From contig OZ024743.1 of assembly GCA_964016885.1 (NCBI GenBank), positions 353,710,001 through 353,774,000 of the forward strand: a stretch of DNA of 64,000 nt, written 5' to 3'. Positions 13,462 through 56,059 of the stretch are shown piece after piece; position 1 is the first letter of the stretch; every line of letters starts with the position of its first letter. This stretch comes from Eledone cirrhosa. Its lineage: Eukaryota. Under the pieces are notes generated by a model, which searched no databases, was not told the origin of the DNA, and saw nothing but the letters and a program-made list of their open reading frames with translations. The translations under genes and the position numbers were made by a program.

Positions 13462-13933
13462 AAGAGATATATTAGATATGTCTCATATGAAATAATACAG
13501 CCAATTTTCCACGCAATACTTTTAGTTAGCACCCCAAACGCTTAATTAGGATATAATCACTTATTTCCTAATGTTTGTTGAGTGAGTTGGAATTTGGCCG
13601 GAGTATCGCTAAAAAGCTTTCTCCGATATTGTATTTATTTATATATATATATATAGTTAAAAGAATAGAGGTGTAACACACAAGTTATTATATATTGGTA
13701 AACGGAATAGAAAATGCTGACAAATTGTTCACAGTTGAAAAATGGTTTAATTAGGAATAAAAGAGTATTAGTGATTGTATGGGTTAGTATTCAGTTGTGG
13801 TTTTAAGTTTTTAAGTTTTTACCGGTTGCGCATTTCTAAATGCTTTTCAAAAATAATTTTGAGATAGAGTGTCCGTGCTGTTTGCTCTGATCTGATTAGT
13901 TTTGGGAATTCTACCTGTTTTTATGTTAAAAAA

Positions 13934-14959
13934 GTGGCTCCAGCGTTATTTTTGTGTTGCAAAAATGCTTGTGGTCAAAACAATTTTGACTTCACGATGG
14001 AATACAGCCATCAACAACTCCCCTTCCTCGACATCCTCATTAAGATCCATAACAAAAAAATAGAAACAGACATATACTACAAGCCCACAGACTCCAAGCA
14101 ATATCTCCCCTTCAACTCTTGCCACCCTAGACACGTTAAAATTAATATTCCCTACAACTTAGCCAAGAGAATCTGTACTATAGTCTCCAATAAAAACATC
14201 TGCTACTTAAGGCTACAAGAACTAAACGACACACTCATAGGCAGGGACTACCCTGCATCACTAATTGACAATGGAATCCAACGTGCCCTAAAACTCAGTA
14301 CCCAGGACCTTAGACACCCTAAAGTAAATCAACCAAAACTAAAAGCTCTTCCATACATCTCCACACACAACCCCCTCAACAATGAGACCTTTGACACCAT
14401 CCTCCAGAACATCCCTGTATTGAAAAAGGACCATAAAATGAACCAAATTCTACGAACACACGATATCATAAAGAGCAAAAGACAATCCAAGTCAATGAAA
14501 AACATCTTAACACATGCCAAAGTACTGCCAACCACAACAACGAAACCCACAGTAAAAAAATGCGATAGACCCAACTGTGGCATTTGCATCAACCTAATAG
14601 AGGGTTCGGAATTCTATTTCAAAGATGGACAACGTTTTATAGTAAAACACAATTTCACATGTGCATCGGAAAATCTAATATATGTATTAACTTGTTCAGG
14701 TTGTCGAGAACAATACATAGGCCAGACCAAAAACAGCCTCCGCCAACGCATCACTGTCCATAGATCCCAAATTAAAATACGGGAATACAGGAAAATACCA
14801 CTGAGTGAACACATTGATACCTGTGCCGCTCAAAATCATCCCAACTTCAGAATCTTTCCCCTCTACAAATTTAAAGATTATGCCACCCACACCCAGCGCA
14901 TCAGCAAGGAATCTTACTTCATTAACAAATACGGACCCCGTCTAAACACTTCTCCCTAA
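13934..14959 (+). CDS. PLE RT C-terminus/thumb plus GIY-YIG endonuclease (partial; the first about 19 codons are read from the inverted arm)
   Basis: FTME..LPFLD..TDIYYKPTD..YL..NSCHP; linker C-x4-C-x2-C (CDRPNCGIC) as in the Neptune clade; LIY.LTC.GC..QYIGQT..LRQR..H...SEH...E...LN. Confidence 0.9.
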   Translation: MAPALFLCCKNACGQNNFDFTMEYSHQQLPFLDILIKIHNKKIETDIYYKPTDSKQYLPFNSCHPRHVKINIPYNLAKRICTIVSNKNICYLRLQELNDTLIGRDYPASLIDNGIQRALKLSTQDLRHPKVNQPKLKALPYISTHNPLNNETFDTILQNIPVLKKDHKMNQILRTHDIIKSKRQSKSMKNILTHAKVLPTTTTKPTVKKCDRPNCGICINLIEGSEFYFKDGQRFIVKHNFTCASENLIYVLTCSGCREQYIGQTKNSLRQRITVHRSQIKIREYRKIPLSEHIDTCAAQNHPNFRIFPLYKFKDYATHTQRISKESYFINKYGPRLNTSP

Positions 14960-23028: not shown

Positions 23029-24532
<1,504 letters not shown>

Positions 24533-43278: not shown

Positions 43279-44986
43279 CACCGTGTAACAAAAACATTTT
43301 TTTTCTCTGTTCCTGGCTTGTAATCACTTTTTTGTGTTGCTTAGGTCCCAAATAAAAAAAAAAAATGCTATTAAACAGTTAAAAGTTTGGGTCTGTAAAA
43401 ATTCTAAGCTATTCACTAGAATTATTTGTATGCTGGATTTTACGTTGTATGTAAGTTTAATTTGCTTATGTTAAATGATTTTTATATATATGTTTCAGGT
43501 TAAATTAAAATTATAAAATAAAGAGTAATACCTAAAGAAAATTATAAAAGTGCAATAAAATATAAAATTGTTAAAAAGTCGATTAAAGAGATTTATTGAT
43601 ACTGGATTTTCGCATTTTAAGCATTCGTCTCCAGGATGAAGCAGTGGAACTTGGTCAAGGAGGAAGTGCAGGTGACAAGTCAGAGAAGTCGACACGAACC
43701 TTTCTCAGGCTTTTACACTCTTAGGGATGGCCTCTGCTTCTGCCATGACGTGCCTGAACTGTTTGATGTTATTGAGGTGCCGTTTGTGCCCAAGGAGTGG
43801 CAGCTATTTATAGACAGCTCCACCACAAGTTTGAAGGCTGTCCTCCTCCACAATGGAAACAAGTTCCCGACACTGCCCCTAGCTCATTCAGTTTTCCCGA
43901 AGGAAGATTACTACAGTGTGAAAGTCGTCTTAGAAGCTCTGTAATACAACCAGTACAATTGGGAAATCATTGGAGACTTCAAGATGGTGGCTTTCCTGCT
44001 TGGACTCCAAGGAGGCTTTATCAAATTCTAATGCTACCTCTGCAGAACCACCTCTGACCACTACAAAAGAAAGAACTGGGAGCAGCGAACAGAATTTGTA
44101 GTTGGGACCCGGAACGTCATGTTGGAGCCACTGGTTGATCCCAGGATTGTGCTCATGCCGCCACTGCACATTAAGTTGGGGTTGATGAAGCAGTTTGTGA
44201 AGGCTCTCAACCAAGAATCATCCGCTTTTAAGTACCTTCTTGAGTTCTTCCTCAAGTTATCTGAGGCCAAAATCAAAGGTGGAATTTTTGTTGGACCTCA
44301 GATAAAGAAGGTGTTTGAGTCTACCGAGTTCTCCAATAAGCTCTATAGGATTGAGAGAACAGCATGGAACTGTTTCAAGGCAGTTGTTAAGGGCTTCCTG
44401 GGCAACTACAGAGATGAAAACTACCAGAAACTGGTGCAGGATCTGGTAAAGGCTTTTGGCGCCATGGGATGCAGGATGTCACTTAAACTCCATATGTTGG
44501 ACGCTCACCTGGAAAAATTCAAGGACAATATGGGCGCCTACTCAGAAGAACAAGGCGAACGATTCCACCAAGATGTGAAAGAGATAGAGCGGAGGTACCA
44601 AGGCCACTACAATGAAAAAATGGTGGGGGACTATATCTGGGGGCTAGTGCGGGAATGCGACCTGGACTACAACCGCAAATCCAGGAAATCCAGTAATTTC
44701 TGACGTGTATAAGTTGCTTTATAAGTGTTATTTGTTTTTACTTGTTTGCTTTTGATAAGCTTGTGTAATAAAATAAATATATACTCTGTTGATTTAATTA
44801 TATGAACTGATAAATTTAAAAAAAATGTATTTTTTCTTGAAAAATATGAACATTTCGAAATATCAAACTCCTGACCACAAACCCAAACTTCTGATTAAAT
44901 AATAGTGTTTTTTTAATAATAATGGGATATAACAAACCATGAAATGACACTTAGAACCGGGGAACAAAAAAATATGTTACACGGTG
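43279..44986 (+). mobile_element. Chapaev3-like (CMC superfamily) DNA transposon
   Basis: TIRs caccgtgtaaca / tgttacacggtg extending imperfectly; 3-bp TTA TSD. Confidence 0.85.
43636..44703 (+). pseudogene. Chapaev3-type transposase, disrupted
   Basis: W.LFIDSS..SLKAVLLHNGN; PPLHIKLGLMKQFVKAL; MSLKLH.L..H; SEEQGERFHQD..E.RYQG; in-frame stops at about 43942 and 44029 plus a frameshift. Confidence 0.85.
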
Positions 44987-45852
44987 TTATCTTCTACCAT
45001 GAATCTGTGTCTTTGTGCTTATGTATATTTGTGTTTTTTCGTGCCTTGTTCCCGATGTTTCCCTTTCAGATATGTGTGTATTTCCCATCCTCTGTTATTT
45101 CTTTTGCATCCTATTTAGTTTAACGAATATATTTGGACTAAATCATTAATTTATCATATAGTCGCAAGATATCTTGGATGTCTTTTCGCCTCGTTTTCTG
45201 TATTGTTTCAAATTCCTGACAGCGCCTAACACATTTTATTTTTTCCGCTGTTGTGGAGTTCCGGAATTCTGGTTACTACTCTTACCACAAAGATCCGACT
45301 GAATGTTCCAGTTTGAGCAGTCAGTGACAGGAATTGTTTGTTTTGTTTCCGTATTTTCCATATTTAATTGGATTAACAACAGTTAATTAATCTCTCATAG
45401 ATCTGTTCTGATCTGTTTCTGTAATTTTGTTATTATTATCTAGTCTCACAAAATACCGTATCCAGATATTTTGTCCGGGGCCAATTCTCTTTCATTCTTT
45501 CGAGTGCCTCTACCTACAACTATGTCTTGTAATGTCGCTTGATCGACCTGCAAGCGTCTCTGACTCTGCGCTGAGAGGCTTTACTTTTGTTTTGATAGTG
45601 CTATTTCTCTTTGTCGATTTTGTGTTATTCTTGTCCAATGGACTGCGTGATTGTCTTATCATACAGCTTTACGTTGTATTTACGCCAGTAAATTGTTTCA
45701 TTACGTGTCACTGATATTTTCCATTTAAGCATATGTGTGTGTGTTCAGCCTCTGTCGTTTGTTTGTTTCACCAACGACTATATTTTGAGTGTATGATACT
45801 GTTTATTTTCATTTTATCCCGTTTGATTTTGATTGTATATATATATATATAT

Positions 45853-47069
45853 GGATTTTCTTTTTCGGGTGAATTTTACCAGCAGGTCTCTGGGGTAGCG
45901 ATGGGAACCAGAATGGGTCTAAACTATGCTAACTTGTTTGTTGGCTACGTCGAAGCCCAGATATTCTCCCAGTACGCTGGACCGACTCCTGAGCTATACG
46001 GTCGTTATATCGACGACTGTATCGGCGTCACCTCTCTATCACGAGAACAGCTCGACTGTTTTCTTTCTTTTGTCCTATCTTTCCATCCTGCTCTCAATTT
46101 CACCGCCTCCGTCTCCGATTCTTCTGTCGCTTTTCTAGATATCTCTCTATCTATTAATCACTCTCACCACACTCTCTACTTCCATCTACATTAAACCAAC
46201 AGACTCCCAATCTTATCTCGACTTCACCTCTTCCCATCCAACCCACACCAAACACTCCATAGCCTATTCCCAATTCCTCCGTCTTCGTCGACTCTGTAGC
46301 CAGGACAACGATTTCGAAACCTATTCCCTTCGCATGGCTTCTTGCTTCATCCAGCGTGGATATCCCCCCACCTTGATCCAAGCTGCTCTCACCCGCGCAC
46401 GTGAAACAGACCACACCACACCTATCTCACCTCACCCCGCCCTCCCAACACCAGTGTTCCTTTCCCTCTCACCTACCATCCCATCACCCTACCACTCCGG
46501 CGACATATCCTCCGTTCCTTCCGTATCCTCTCTTCTGACCCCGCCACTTCTAGCTGTTTTCCAAACCCACCCATTACTGCTTTTAAGCGCGCCCGAAACC
46601 TCCGCGACCTCCTGGTTCGGAGTTCTTTTCCGTTCTCTCCCAGGACTCCACCCGGCTCTCATCCTTGTTCCCGTTCCCGCTGCAACACTTGTCCCTTTAT
46701 TTCCACCCTCACCACTCTTACAGGCCCTAACGGGTCTTTCCGTATCCGACATTCCTTCACCTGCACATCCACCCACGTTGTCTATGCCCTCCGGTGTTCC
46801 CTTTTACGGGTCTTTATATGTCGGACAAACGGGACGCCGTATGGCGGACCGTTTTGCCGAACATTTGAGGGACATACGACTCGGTTTGGATACTCCTGAC
46901 GACCCCGCCCGTCCCCTCAATTTATTTTATTTCGCATTATTTCTTCTGATGAAGGACTAGCGTCCGAAACGTTAAGACCTTCTTCCTGCTGTATCAAGCG
47001 TTAACCTAATATATACCTTCCATATACTGTACCGATTGTGTTGTTATTTCTGTTTACCTTTTACATGCA
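45853..47069 (+). mobile_element. Second Neptune-type PLE, 5'-truncated and frameshifted, with 3' hammerhead, in (TA)n
   Basis: FYQQVSGVAMG, RYIDD, FLDI, KPTDSQSYL, C-x4-C-x2-C linker, LYVGQTGRRMADRFAEH. Confidence 0.9.
46942..46977 (+). ncRNA. Minimal type I hammerhead of PLE
   Basis: tctt CUGAUGA a ggac-tagc-gtcc GAA ACGU U aaga (palindromic stem III). Confidence 0.85.
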
Positions 47070-50396: not shown

Positions 50397-50497
50397 CATC
50401 AGCCTGATCTTTGAGCTGAGAGCTATATTTTTGTCATTCCGGATGGCCTTAAGTTTTGCAAGTGCTGCTGTGGTCTGGGCAGATCTGGCGAGTACTT
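50394..50497 (-). mobile_element. RTE-like LINE fragment
   Basis: Translates [33 protein letters not shown], the post-RT region typical of RTE-group LINEs. Confidence 0.6.
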
Positions 50498-50507
50498 ATA
50501 TATATAG

Positions 50508-50585
<78 letters not shown>

Positions 50586-50589
<4 letters not shown>

Positions 50590-51817
50590 GGAAAAAATGA
50601 AACGAAATTTCATTTCCCACTCTTAGTACGGCTGTTACTTAAATATAGGTATGTACACGTACATACATATATGTATACAGACGTACAGTAGTATGTACAT
50701 ATATATACATACATGCACACATATATATATGTACGTATGGATTCACCGAACATTTATTATAATGCTCGGTGTGCTTGTAAACATACATCCCGTATTAAGC
50801 CGCAGTGTCCAGCAACCATCATTGCTCGTTTGTTCAAGCACACCGAGCATTATAATAAATGTTCGGTGAATCCATACGCACATATATATATATATATGTG
50901 TGCATGTATGTATATATATGTATATACTACTGTACGTCTGTATACATATATGTATGTACGTGTACATACTTATATTTAAGTAATAGCCGTACTAAGAATG
51001 GGAAAGAATGAAATTTCGTTTCATTTTTTCCGTTCATCGGTTTCGGTGCACCCGGCCGATTAACCCACTCGATATGCAAATTGGGATACTCAGCCGTTAA
51101 TATGCATAAGGTAAGTATATACGTTCAACAATCTGGCAGGAAGGTATACGTTGCTGACGATAGCTAATAAGCTTGAAACTAGTACAGCGTTCCTTTGTCA
51201 GTGTTGAACAAACGAGCAACGATGGTTGCTGGACACTACGGCTTAATACGGGATGTTTGTTTACAAGCACACCGAGCATTATAATAAATGTTCGGTGAAT
51301 CCATACGTACATATATATATATATGTGCATGTATGTATATATATGTACATACTACTGTACGTCTGTATACATATATGTATGTACGTGTACATACTTATAT
51401 TTAAGTAACAGCCGTACTAAGAGTGGGAAATTAAATTTCATTTCATTTTTTGCGTTTATCGTTTTCGGTGCACCCGGCCGATTAACCCACTCGATATGCA
51501 AATTGGGCTACTCAGCCGTTATTATGCATAAGGTAAGTATATACGTTCAACAATCTGGCAGGAAGGTATACATTGCTGACGATAGCTAATAAGCTTGAAA
51601 CTAGTACAGCGTTCCTTTGTCAGTGTTGAACAAACGAGCAACGATGGTTGCTGGACACTACGGCTTAATACGGGATGTTTGTTTACAAGCACACCGAGCA
51701 TTATAATAAATGTTCGGTGAATCCATACGTACATATATATATATATGTGTGCATGTATGTATATATATGTACATACTACTGTACGTCTGTATACATATAT
51801 GTATGTACGTGTACATA

Positions 51818-51820
<3 letters not shown>
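50586..51820 (+). mobile_element. 422-nt HHR repeat family, locus B: inverted 5' arm plus about 2.3 head-to-tail units
   Basis: Antisense arm 50586-50837; HHRs 51148-51190 and 51570-51612 (CUGACGA uagc..gcuu GAA ACUAGU A cagcg); cleavage sites 51184 and 51606. Confidence 0.9.
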
Positions 51821-51893
<73 letters not shown>

Positions 51894-51895
<2 letters not shown>

Positions 51896-52683
51896 AAACG
51901 AAAGGAGGTGTGTGGTTACTGTAAACAAAGTTTAAGATGGTAGTATGGACAAAACAAAAGAAGAAAAGAAATCCTTCATCAGCTGTAAAATCGAGATCAA
52001 GATGTTTCGGCGCTTAATACAGGACATCTAAAAGTGATCAGCGGCGCGCCCAAGGCCTTTTATCGATCAAAGGGCCAGGTGGAAAGTAAAGCAAAAAGAA
52101 GAAAAAAAAGGGGAAAAATAGTGGGGAGAGAGGAAGAAAGAGAAAAAACGGGTAAACAGACAAATTGGTGGGGGGACAGAGGACAATGGAACATGCAAGT
52201 GAGTAATTGAGGAAAAAATAGACTAGCATAAGTTATAGCGTACCGATTAGACTTAAGTCTGGTGTGTGATAACATGAGTCCAGTGTTACCTTGGCATCTC
52301 AATCAAAGTGAAGAGAAAGAGAGAGAGAGAGAGATGGTGCAACCGGAAGTGAGAGTTTTACGACAGTTGTAAAACGTGTCGTAAACGATCGAAACCAGAG
52401 GAGTTTTACATCTGTGAAGCATGTCGTAAACGATCGAAAACGAGCAGATGGATAGAGAGAGAGGGAGAAAGAGAGAACGAGAGAGAGAGAGGAAAAACGG
52501 AAGGGGAGAGTCGATATGAAAGTGTGGTGCGTCCACAGATCGAGCAAAGCAGGTAGATGGGGGGGGGGGGGGTCACAGCGGTAAATACAAAATTATAAGA
52601 AACGAAAGGAGCTGTGTGGTTACTGTAAGCAAAGTTTAAGATGGTAGTATGGATGATACAAGAAAAGAAAAGAAATCCTTCAT

Positions 52684-55269: not shown

Positions 55270-55321
55270 AGTTTTAAATAAACCTGAATCAATTGAATAT
55301 GGCCTCCGATCTTTTATTAAT

Positions 55322-56035
55322 ATATACTTTCAAAAGTTCAATCGACTGACAGGAAGGTATACGGTGCTGATGACAGCTAATAAGCTAGAAACTAGTTCAT
55401 CGTTCCTTTGTCAATGTTGAACAAAAGGGCAACGATGGTTGCCGAACACTGTACGGCTTAATTCGGGCTGTTTGTTTATAAACAAACCGAACATTATAAT
55501 AAATGTTCGGTAAACCCATACGTACATATATATATGTGTGCATGTATGTATATACATACTACTGTACGTCTGTATACATATATGTATGTACGTATTCATA
55601 CTTATATTTAAGTAACAGCCGTACTAAGAGTGAGAAATGAAATTTCGTTTCATTTTTTCCATTTATCGTTTTCGGTGCGCCCGGCCGACTAACTCTCTCG
55701 ATATGCAAATTAGGCTGCTCAGCCGTTAATATGCATAAGGAAAGCATGTACTTTCAAACGTTCAATCGACTGACAGGAAGGTATACGGTGCTGATGATAG
55801 CTAATAAGCTAGAAACTAGTTCATCATTCCTTTGTCAGTGTTGAACAAAAGGGCAACGATGGTTGCCGAACACTGTACGGTTTAATTCAGGGTATTTGTT
55901 TACAAACAAACCGAACATTATAATAAATGTTCGGTAATCCCATACGTACATATATATATATATATGTGCATGTATGTATGTATATACATACTACTCTACG
56001 TCTGTATACATATATGTATGTACGTATACATACTT
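55322..56035 (+). mobile_element. 422-nt HHR repeat family, locus C: about 1.7 head-to-tail units (424-nt spacing)
   Basis: HHRs 55361-55403 and 55786-55825 (ggtg CUGAUGA uagc-uaauaa-gcua GAA ACUAGU U catc); cleavage sites 55397 and 55821. Confidence 0.9.
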
Positions 56036-56059
56036 ATATATATATATATATATATATAT

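Follow-up and report, generated by a model that had tools for sequence, protein, structure and literature searches.

A high-copy hammerhead repeat family of Eledone cirrhosa that is very probably mobilised by PLEs

Here we analysed the hammerhead tandem repeat at positions 50497-51893 of a 64,000-nucleotide stretch of the Eledone cirrhosa genome ("the window" denotes this whole stretch). The locus is one ordinary insertion of a large dispersed family, and that family is very probably a non-autonomous hammerhead repeat mobilised by Penelope-like elements (PLEs). We lean towards the reading that the locus is a non-LTR retrozyme insertion, copied in trans by a PLE RT/endonuclease from a small RNA circle.

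TRF resolved a tandem array with a period of 422, 2.3 copies and 96% matches at 50828-51824, which bears out the head-to-tail units of 422 nt proposed in the preliminary description of this DNA. The insertion lies between (TA)n target microsatellites, at 50497-50586 on the left flank and 51820-51893 on the right, and comprises two arms; the (TA)n on both sides and the inverted 5' arm had each been noticed before. This inverted arm occupies 50584-50837 on the minus strand, is 5'-truncated and 96% identical to the 422-nt unit, and covers unit positions ~20-275 (numbered from the predicted cut, with u1 at 51185), ending at the long 3' end of the family. Its outermost 59 nt (50584-50642, minus strand, unit 217-275) form a "tail" that is found at the left insertion end only and that, on the basis of the available text of PMC11167929, probably represents the interval between two RT start sites. 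The two arms meet head to head at 50835-50837, where they have a 3-nt microhomology, CAA. The direct arm (50835-51824, plus strand) contains 2.3 units, is also 5'-truncated and terminates at the short 3' end (unit ~212-216). Within it, CTGACGA cores start at 51154 and 51576 and GAAACTAGTA ends at 51184 and 51606, placing the predicted cut sites behind both hammerhead cores and 422 nt apart, as had been claimed. The locus contains only one complete cut-to-cut monomer (51185-51606, plus strand), which is 422 nt long, has 37% GC and is predicted to be highly self-paired.

The window holds further copies of the family: a single arm that is ~87% identical (23063-23436, minus strand), a head-to-head pair at 23677-24454 (23677-24054 minus, 24058-24454 plus) with the short end on the left and the tail on the right, and a copy of 1.7 units at 55321-56042 (plus strand) with two hammerheads and an altered stem II / cut triplet. 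To the right of the element, a 102-nt direct repeat occurs at 51878-51979 and 52582-52683 (88% identical, 704 nt apart), which is probably the terminal duplication of another repeat.

Hammerhead 1 spans 51148-51190 on the plus strand, with a predicted cut after 51184. Its stem I is formed by 51148-51153/51185-51190, its core by 51154-51160, stem II by 51162-51165/51170-51173 and the GAAA by 51175-51178; stem III is palindromic. Hammerhead 2 spans 51570-51612 (plus strand), with a predicted cut after 51606, and carries a private A51572; the residue is G in 127 of the 134 copies sampled. The resulting A.C mismatch disrupts a stem I pair, which makes other copies preferable for testing the ribozyme. 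Helix I comprises 6 bp and a predicted extension, helix II has 4 bp (AGCU/AGCU) with the loop AAUA and a U.U at its base, and helix III has 2 bp and is palindromic. As defined in the available text of PMC4209133, the min-HHR of PLEs has no helix III, a helix II of 7-8 bp and a helix I of 4-5 bp, whereas the canonical geometry has a helix I of 6 bp, a helix II of 4 bp and a short palindromic helix III. By these definitions the geometry is canonical metazoan; of the "minimal type I hammerhead" first proposed, type I stands and "minimal" does not. In a search with 161 nt, Rfam HH9 was aligned over its full model (1-77/77) with an E value of 0.009; at 19.7 bits the match stays under the gathering score, which is 52. 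The stem I bulge and the A-rich loop II, candidates for a loop 1/loop 2 tertiary contact, align with that model. A search with 7 kb gave no hammerhead family among the matches listed; its miRNA matches were rejected as products of TA-rich hairpins, all far below gathering.

An earlier count of ribozyme conservation was biased, since most of its loci had been picked by the motif, and it was repeated on loci picked by the tail. In this sample, which leans to some subfamilies, lineage-level variation was seen in none of the 31 ribozyme columns vs 28 of 247 other columns (Fisher p 0.03). The single stem I pair that varies keeps its pairing in 30 of 31 copies (U-G, A-U, G-U), and the common variants besides it, among the genome-wide matches listed, are confined to N7 and loop II, positions that are free in hammerheads. 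The hammerhead differs between subfamilies at free or compensated positions only. Covariation is weak and was seen at one pair, with 30 of 500 shuffles scoring as high and the outer-helix register off in that test. In a sample that was not picked by ribozyme, 25 of 33 cores are intact. Predicted folding of the monomer is more stable than that of shuffles (z -6.25; -4.3 without the TA-rich part), and the predicted circular fold of the locus's own monomer leaves stem I unformed (pair probability <=0.05). Lunse et al. reportedly described dimeric PLE hammerheads in 2017. For Xenopus retrozymes, the available text of bioRxiv 10.64898/2026.07.22.740005 gives cleavage of one dimer out of nine.

Across the 3.0-Gb genome, a 30-nt core occurs in 11,136 exact copies and, within two mismatches, in 35,832; the exact catalytic core plus stem III occurs 28,861 times. 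Each reversed control gave 0, from which it follows that the hammerhead core is not a product of chance. The genome-wide count that the preliminary description had called for thus speaks for a high copy number, with an estimated load of ~15 Mb (36,000 x ~420 bp). Units measure 422-445 bp, copies usually contain 1-5 of them, and the median arm is 417 nt in 64 position-ordered loci. The 422-nt unit (37% GC) has a low-complexity longest ATG frame of 88 aa, and neither PLE protein matches nor an RT/GIY-YIG ORF occur inside family arms in the loci searched. With 28,861 intact cores and no meaningful ORF, the proposed tandem family of non-coding units, each bearing a type I hammerhead, is upheld and has a high copy number. 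The copies that best match the window's are 96-99% identical, and median pairwise divergence is 3.4% in a young subfamily and 7.0% in an older one; "recently mobile" was apt in that the family is fairly young.

Two long arrays consist of 50 and 48 copies of the ribozyme; their higher-order periods of 4 and 6 units indicate that they grew later at the DNA level. They lie at G000:C1 ~51.77-51.79 Mb (L257, L258, L277, L278) and ~70.06-70.08 Mb (L259, L279-L281). The 50-copy array at ~51.77-51.79 Mb, with 41 of 50 cores intact, immediately follows a same-strand Hydra-type element and is a candidate source locus. The 48-unit array has 2 of 48 cores intact by the search pattern used.

The case for mobilisation by PLEs comes from the anatomy of the insertions, whose footprints are unusually clear. 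Arms end at one of two unit positions in 42 of 50 cases in 28 best-hit loci and in 91 of 108 cases in the 64 position-ordered loci, counts that leave out six duplicate loci and the window's own two. These two fixed 3' ends, at u~212-219 (short) and u~275 (tail), are 59 nt apart, and the 5' ends are scattered. Head-to-head pairs with both ends classifiable combine a short with a tail end in 51 of 52 cases (13, 23 and 15; 36/37 in the best-hit and position-ordered loci and 15/15 in 40 tail-picked loci), the remaining pair being tail+tail and none short+short; 22 pairs with one unclassifiable end are outside this count, and one pair occurs twice in L283. A (TA)n tract adjoins the short end in 47 of 64 cases and the tail end in 55 of 76, vs a background of 8%. 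Target-site duplications, which in retrozymes exceed 4 bp when present, would not stand out within (TA)n; one family copy that sits in a PLE ORF is bordered on either side by a short AT-rich repeat. PLE insertions as described in the available text of Craig et al. (PMC8557442) have 5' truncation, partial tandems, an inverted truncated copy and a one-ended tail, and (TA)n is given there as the target of Neptune, Naiad and Hydra PLEs. Frangieh et al. (PMC11167929) describe a PLE that nicks and extends both strands in vitro, with the tail lying between two internal RT starts. From the anatomy, the same double-strand nick and extend chemistry would act on the present family, with a 59-nt tail. Random 5' truncation, two 3' ends, the 51/52 pairs and the (TA)n targets together agree with the PLE-type mobilisation that had been proposed from the letters of the locus.

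We also asked what form the template may have had. Arms cross the predicted cut in 32 of 42 cases (best-hit loci), 75 of 91 (position-ordered loci, which were picked for an intact ribozyme) and 31 of 61 (tail-picked loci). Truncation-type matches genome-wide number 237 at u1-6, 382 at u6-11 and 125 at u418-1, compared with 26,677 copies of u1-25. This is a rough test in that the patterns differ in length, and among 100 matches listed per pattern small indels make up, by eye, ~1/5, ~1/3 and ~1/10, respectively. These counts contain no excess of 5' ends at the predicted cut, and a local cluster of 5' ends at unit ~2-5 (6 of 184 cases) was not borne out by them. Since cDNAs cross the cut with no peak of ends there, the usual template is not a linear monomer left by cleavage. 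With the ribozyme kept and the template continuous across the cut, a cut-and-religated circle is the simplest reading, and on balance we favour a small RNA circle as the putative template. The junction of an RNA circle has the same sequence as the genomic tandem junction. Units and arms of one insertion have a common lineage haplotype, with 5-9% discordance vs 36% between loci and a background of 3%, in a comparison that leaves out three arrays whose units are nearly identical; this is in keeping with a circle. Two cut sites are present in only 13 of 91 and 11 of 42 arms, and within- vs between-locus identity does not separate circle from multimer templates.

A doubtful but serious alternative keeps the PLE machinery and takes as template an uncleaved linear multimer from the long arrays, with circles absent or a dead end; the hammerhead might then, with equal reserve, be slow, protein-assisted or merely trimming the 5' end. 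Arrays of 50 and 48 ribozymes do exist, one of them downstream of a same-strand Hydra-type element, and reading through the cut is expected from a multimer as well. In the in vitro work of PMC11167929, as given in its available text, uncleaved RNA is the main PLE substrate and anole Poseidon with a dead hammerhead inserts equally well. One further locus, L024, is more readily accommodated by a multimer: one of its arms joins older-subfamily units to a young-subfamily 3' unit, a mosaic that is not derivable from a single monomer circle and that may reflect a template switch, a mixed multimer or recombination. However, a working ribozyme would produce templates that start at the cut, and the excess of 5' ends expected from these is absent genome-wide and amounts to the 6/184 cases locally. 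Conservation of the ribozyme at the lineage level also requires a function, and in 275 columns no allele is tied to unit order, the 3' end itself excepted.

It is improbable that the unit is instead the pseudo-LTR of a coding PLE, with most copies being 5'-truncated ends, a condition under which the preliminary description would have been abandoned and of which the PLE families sampled give no sign. The anatomy of the ends is that of PLEs, and the hammerheads of Neptune-type elements in this genome match in lengths; sampling of PLEs is partial, covering few Hydra families, with Naiad outside the search. Against this reading, no common ORF end was found upstream of units in 92 + 40 + 20 loci, where another unit, an inverted arm or flank is present instead. 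A blastn comparison with 150 PLE-anchored loci returned separate insertions only and no unit as a terminal repeat. Thirteen PLE 3' regions compared with shuffles gave z from -0.8 to 3.2, the best (L203) being gappy and just above the null maximum, and when a sister ribozyme with a different stem II was sought by pattern, 5 matches came up, with no new family among those listed. Less probable still, to the point of being remote, is a DNA satellite spread by recombination in which the hammerhead is chance or a relic. The higher-order periods of the long arrays are satellite-like, as are the near-identical units in L097, L113 and L028, but dispersed short copies, fixed 3' and random 5' ends, head-to-head arms and (TA)n targets are marks of retrotransposition, and units within most loci are as divergent as independent copies of the same age. 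For the dispersed copies, the end statistics refute a satellite origin.

If PLE enzymes move the family, the genome offers candidates. Several Neptune-type and Hydra-type families (RWR, DKT and CxCx5C motifs) have intact ORFs, pairwise divergences of 0.2 to 8% and ends in (TA)n, and two-ended tails occur in at least three autonomous PLE families. "Neptune-type" here denotes a Cys linker motif plus a C-terminal GIY-YIG and not a position in a tree. All named relatives of a PLE protein encoded in the window come from octopods, with identities of 52-63%. The hammerhead of one Neptune group is of the same lengths (14 nt between cores, 4-nt palindromic stem III), which may be a hint at ancestry only, and the autonomous partner may be rare or extinct. 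Several apparent partners were rejected. The L056 match behind a Neptune copy proved to be a separate insertion, and L194, L257, L263 and L274 are only neighbours in (TA)n. In L111 (548-3330), a family copy was inserted in a Hydra-type ORF and later duplicated in inverted orientation with the PLE 3' part. A stretch common with a Hydra-type 3' region, containing two splice-donor-like sites, reached z of only 1.7-2.0.

Other elements were observed alongside. A very young Neptune-type family is found at window 13868-14959 (plus strand) and in L061, as a 4734-bp tandem; its best copies are 0.2% apart, a first look gave 37,080 candidates, and its frames of 455 and 784 aa overlap. In its hammerhead-like motif, which may be inactive, the core is U3-A8 and GCAA replaces GAAA. 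A Hydra-type PLE (L221-L228, L251-L253) encodes a 713-aa protein for which no Pfam match was obtained; the 3' region of this PLE exists in longer and shorter versions, which diverge at splice-donor-like sites and are likely intron-retaining and spliced copies. At window 45715-46960 (plus strand) lies a broken PLE fragment, presumably Poseidon-like from its motifs, followed by a minimal-type hammerhead at 46946, while frames at 44032-44703 (223 aa) and 43621-44057, with their neighbours, resemble a coding mobile element in decay. Another hammerhead tandem family, unrelated to the first and with units of 310 bp, is present at L078:6560-7480, also as a head-to-head pair, and more hammerhead families occur in L064, L072 and L065 and at window positions 2504, 4977, 26157 and 49743. 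The genome likely holds several retrozyme-like families.

Metazoan non-LTR retrozymes have been described from coral, mussel and axolotl, with circles demonstrated (Cervera and de la Pena 2020, PMC7229834). As far as the available text of that paper goes, the present family resembles them in its non-coding, low-GC tandems that range from dimers to large multimers, in a canonical type I hammerhead per unit, in high predicted self-pairing and in coexistence with autonomous PLEs. The U.U at the base of helix II is also found in axolotl HHR_Amex2, and the copy number falls between those of mussel (~5,000) and axolotl (~126,000). The unit of 422-445 nt is at the long end of the retrozyme range of 150-450 bp. 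Two fixed 3' ends, a tail and head-to-head arms are features of the family that are absent from the available text of PMC7229834, and whereas expression and circles are demonstrated for metazoan retrozymes, in the present family both are putative. On every sequence-level feature examined, it appears to fit the retrozyme class.

Retrozymes have been treated as non-autonomous PLE sequences by Li, Clavereau and Pollet (bioRxiv 10.64898/2026.07.22.740005), whose model in the available text is, as here, one of tandem hammerhead repeats mobilised by PLEs. Our locus contains two consecutive units with a complete hammerhead, which is what Li et al. term "active". Their evidence consists of co-occurrence and pLTR homology, while ours is insertion anatomy; of their 57 Xenopus families, 24 are reported to have a homologue in Repbase, whereas no pLTR homologue was found here among the sampled PLEs. 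Their species, according to the same text, are 31 vertebrates, 3 insects and a coral, with no mollusc. Likenesses to EN+ PLEs (Neptune, Hydra; anole Poseidon), within the available text of PMC8557442 and PMC11167929, include 5' truncation, partial tandems, an inverted 5'-truncated arm, a one-ended tail, a (TA)n target and a hammerhead upstream of the RT starts. The family differs from these in having no RT/GIY-YIG ORF, a tail of 59 nt rather than 30-40 and a canonical rather than minimal hammerhead. Chlamys non-autonomous elements (MRC1, PMC8557442) are similarly described as non-coding and dependent on PLEs, with pLTRs and with insertions of multiple copies head to tail, but belong to green algae, generally have 3' ends in common with an autonomous family and come from a clade without canonical hammerheads.

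The retrozyme class and its link to PLEs are thus already published, in the available texts of PMC7229834 and bioRxiv 10.64898/2026.07.22.740005, and the family itself is new. It may already be named in Dfam or Repbase. The literature searched contained no description of a cephalopod retrozyme, and the supplement of PMC7229834 might list cephalopod repeats. The words octopus and cephalopod are absent from the main texts of PMC7229834, PMC6155905 and PMC7761336, and the available portions of PMC8967140 and PMC10886601 add nothing on cephalopod retrozymes. The giant squid paper counts 235 Rfam hammerhead loci and, in its available text, says nothing further on them. At least three Octopus PLE families are included in the supplement of Craig et al., and four sequence words of the 422-nt unit are absent from its available part.

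In the cycle that we propose, read-through transcription of copies with at least two ribozymes would give RNA that is predicted to cleave after GUA into monomers of ~420-445 nt, probably helped by pairing of palindromic stem IIIs. The monomer would be ligated to a circle. A Neptune- or Hydra-type PLE enzyme would then, judging from the footprints, nick both strands of a (TA)n tract and begin cDNA synthesis at two internal positions of the RNA that are separated by 59 nt. Both cDNAs would pass the ribozyme site, stop randomly and join head to head, as is visible in the DNA structure of the insertions. Some arrays expanded later at the DNA level, to about 50 units. Whether the ~30,000 copies record a PLE RT copying in trans around a ribozyme-made RNA circle is, to judge from their sequences, an evenly balanced matter.

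The movement of animal retrozymes has so far been a hypothesis, in which co-occurrence and homology are the grounds for invoking PLE enzymes and circular templates. Here, the insertion signature of PLEs itself is borne by tens of thousands of family copies, and about 15 Mb of repeat (estimate) is assigned to a class. Intact and very young PLE ORFs are present in the same genome, so that RNA and candidate enzymes are both available for an in vitro test. The family also bears on the purpose of PLE-associated hammerheads, since its ribozyme is conserved and yet cDNAs disregard the cut. If true, copying of a circle would mean that these insertions document directly, in genomic DNA, the rolling-circle retrotransposition of an animal RNA of viroid size, with two internal starts, a religated cut that is read through and cDNA of more than unit length, by an enzyme whose own terminal repeat would be unlike the family unit.
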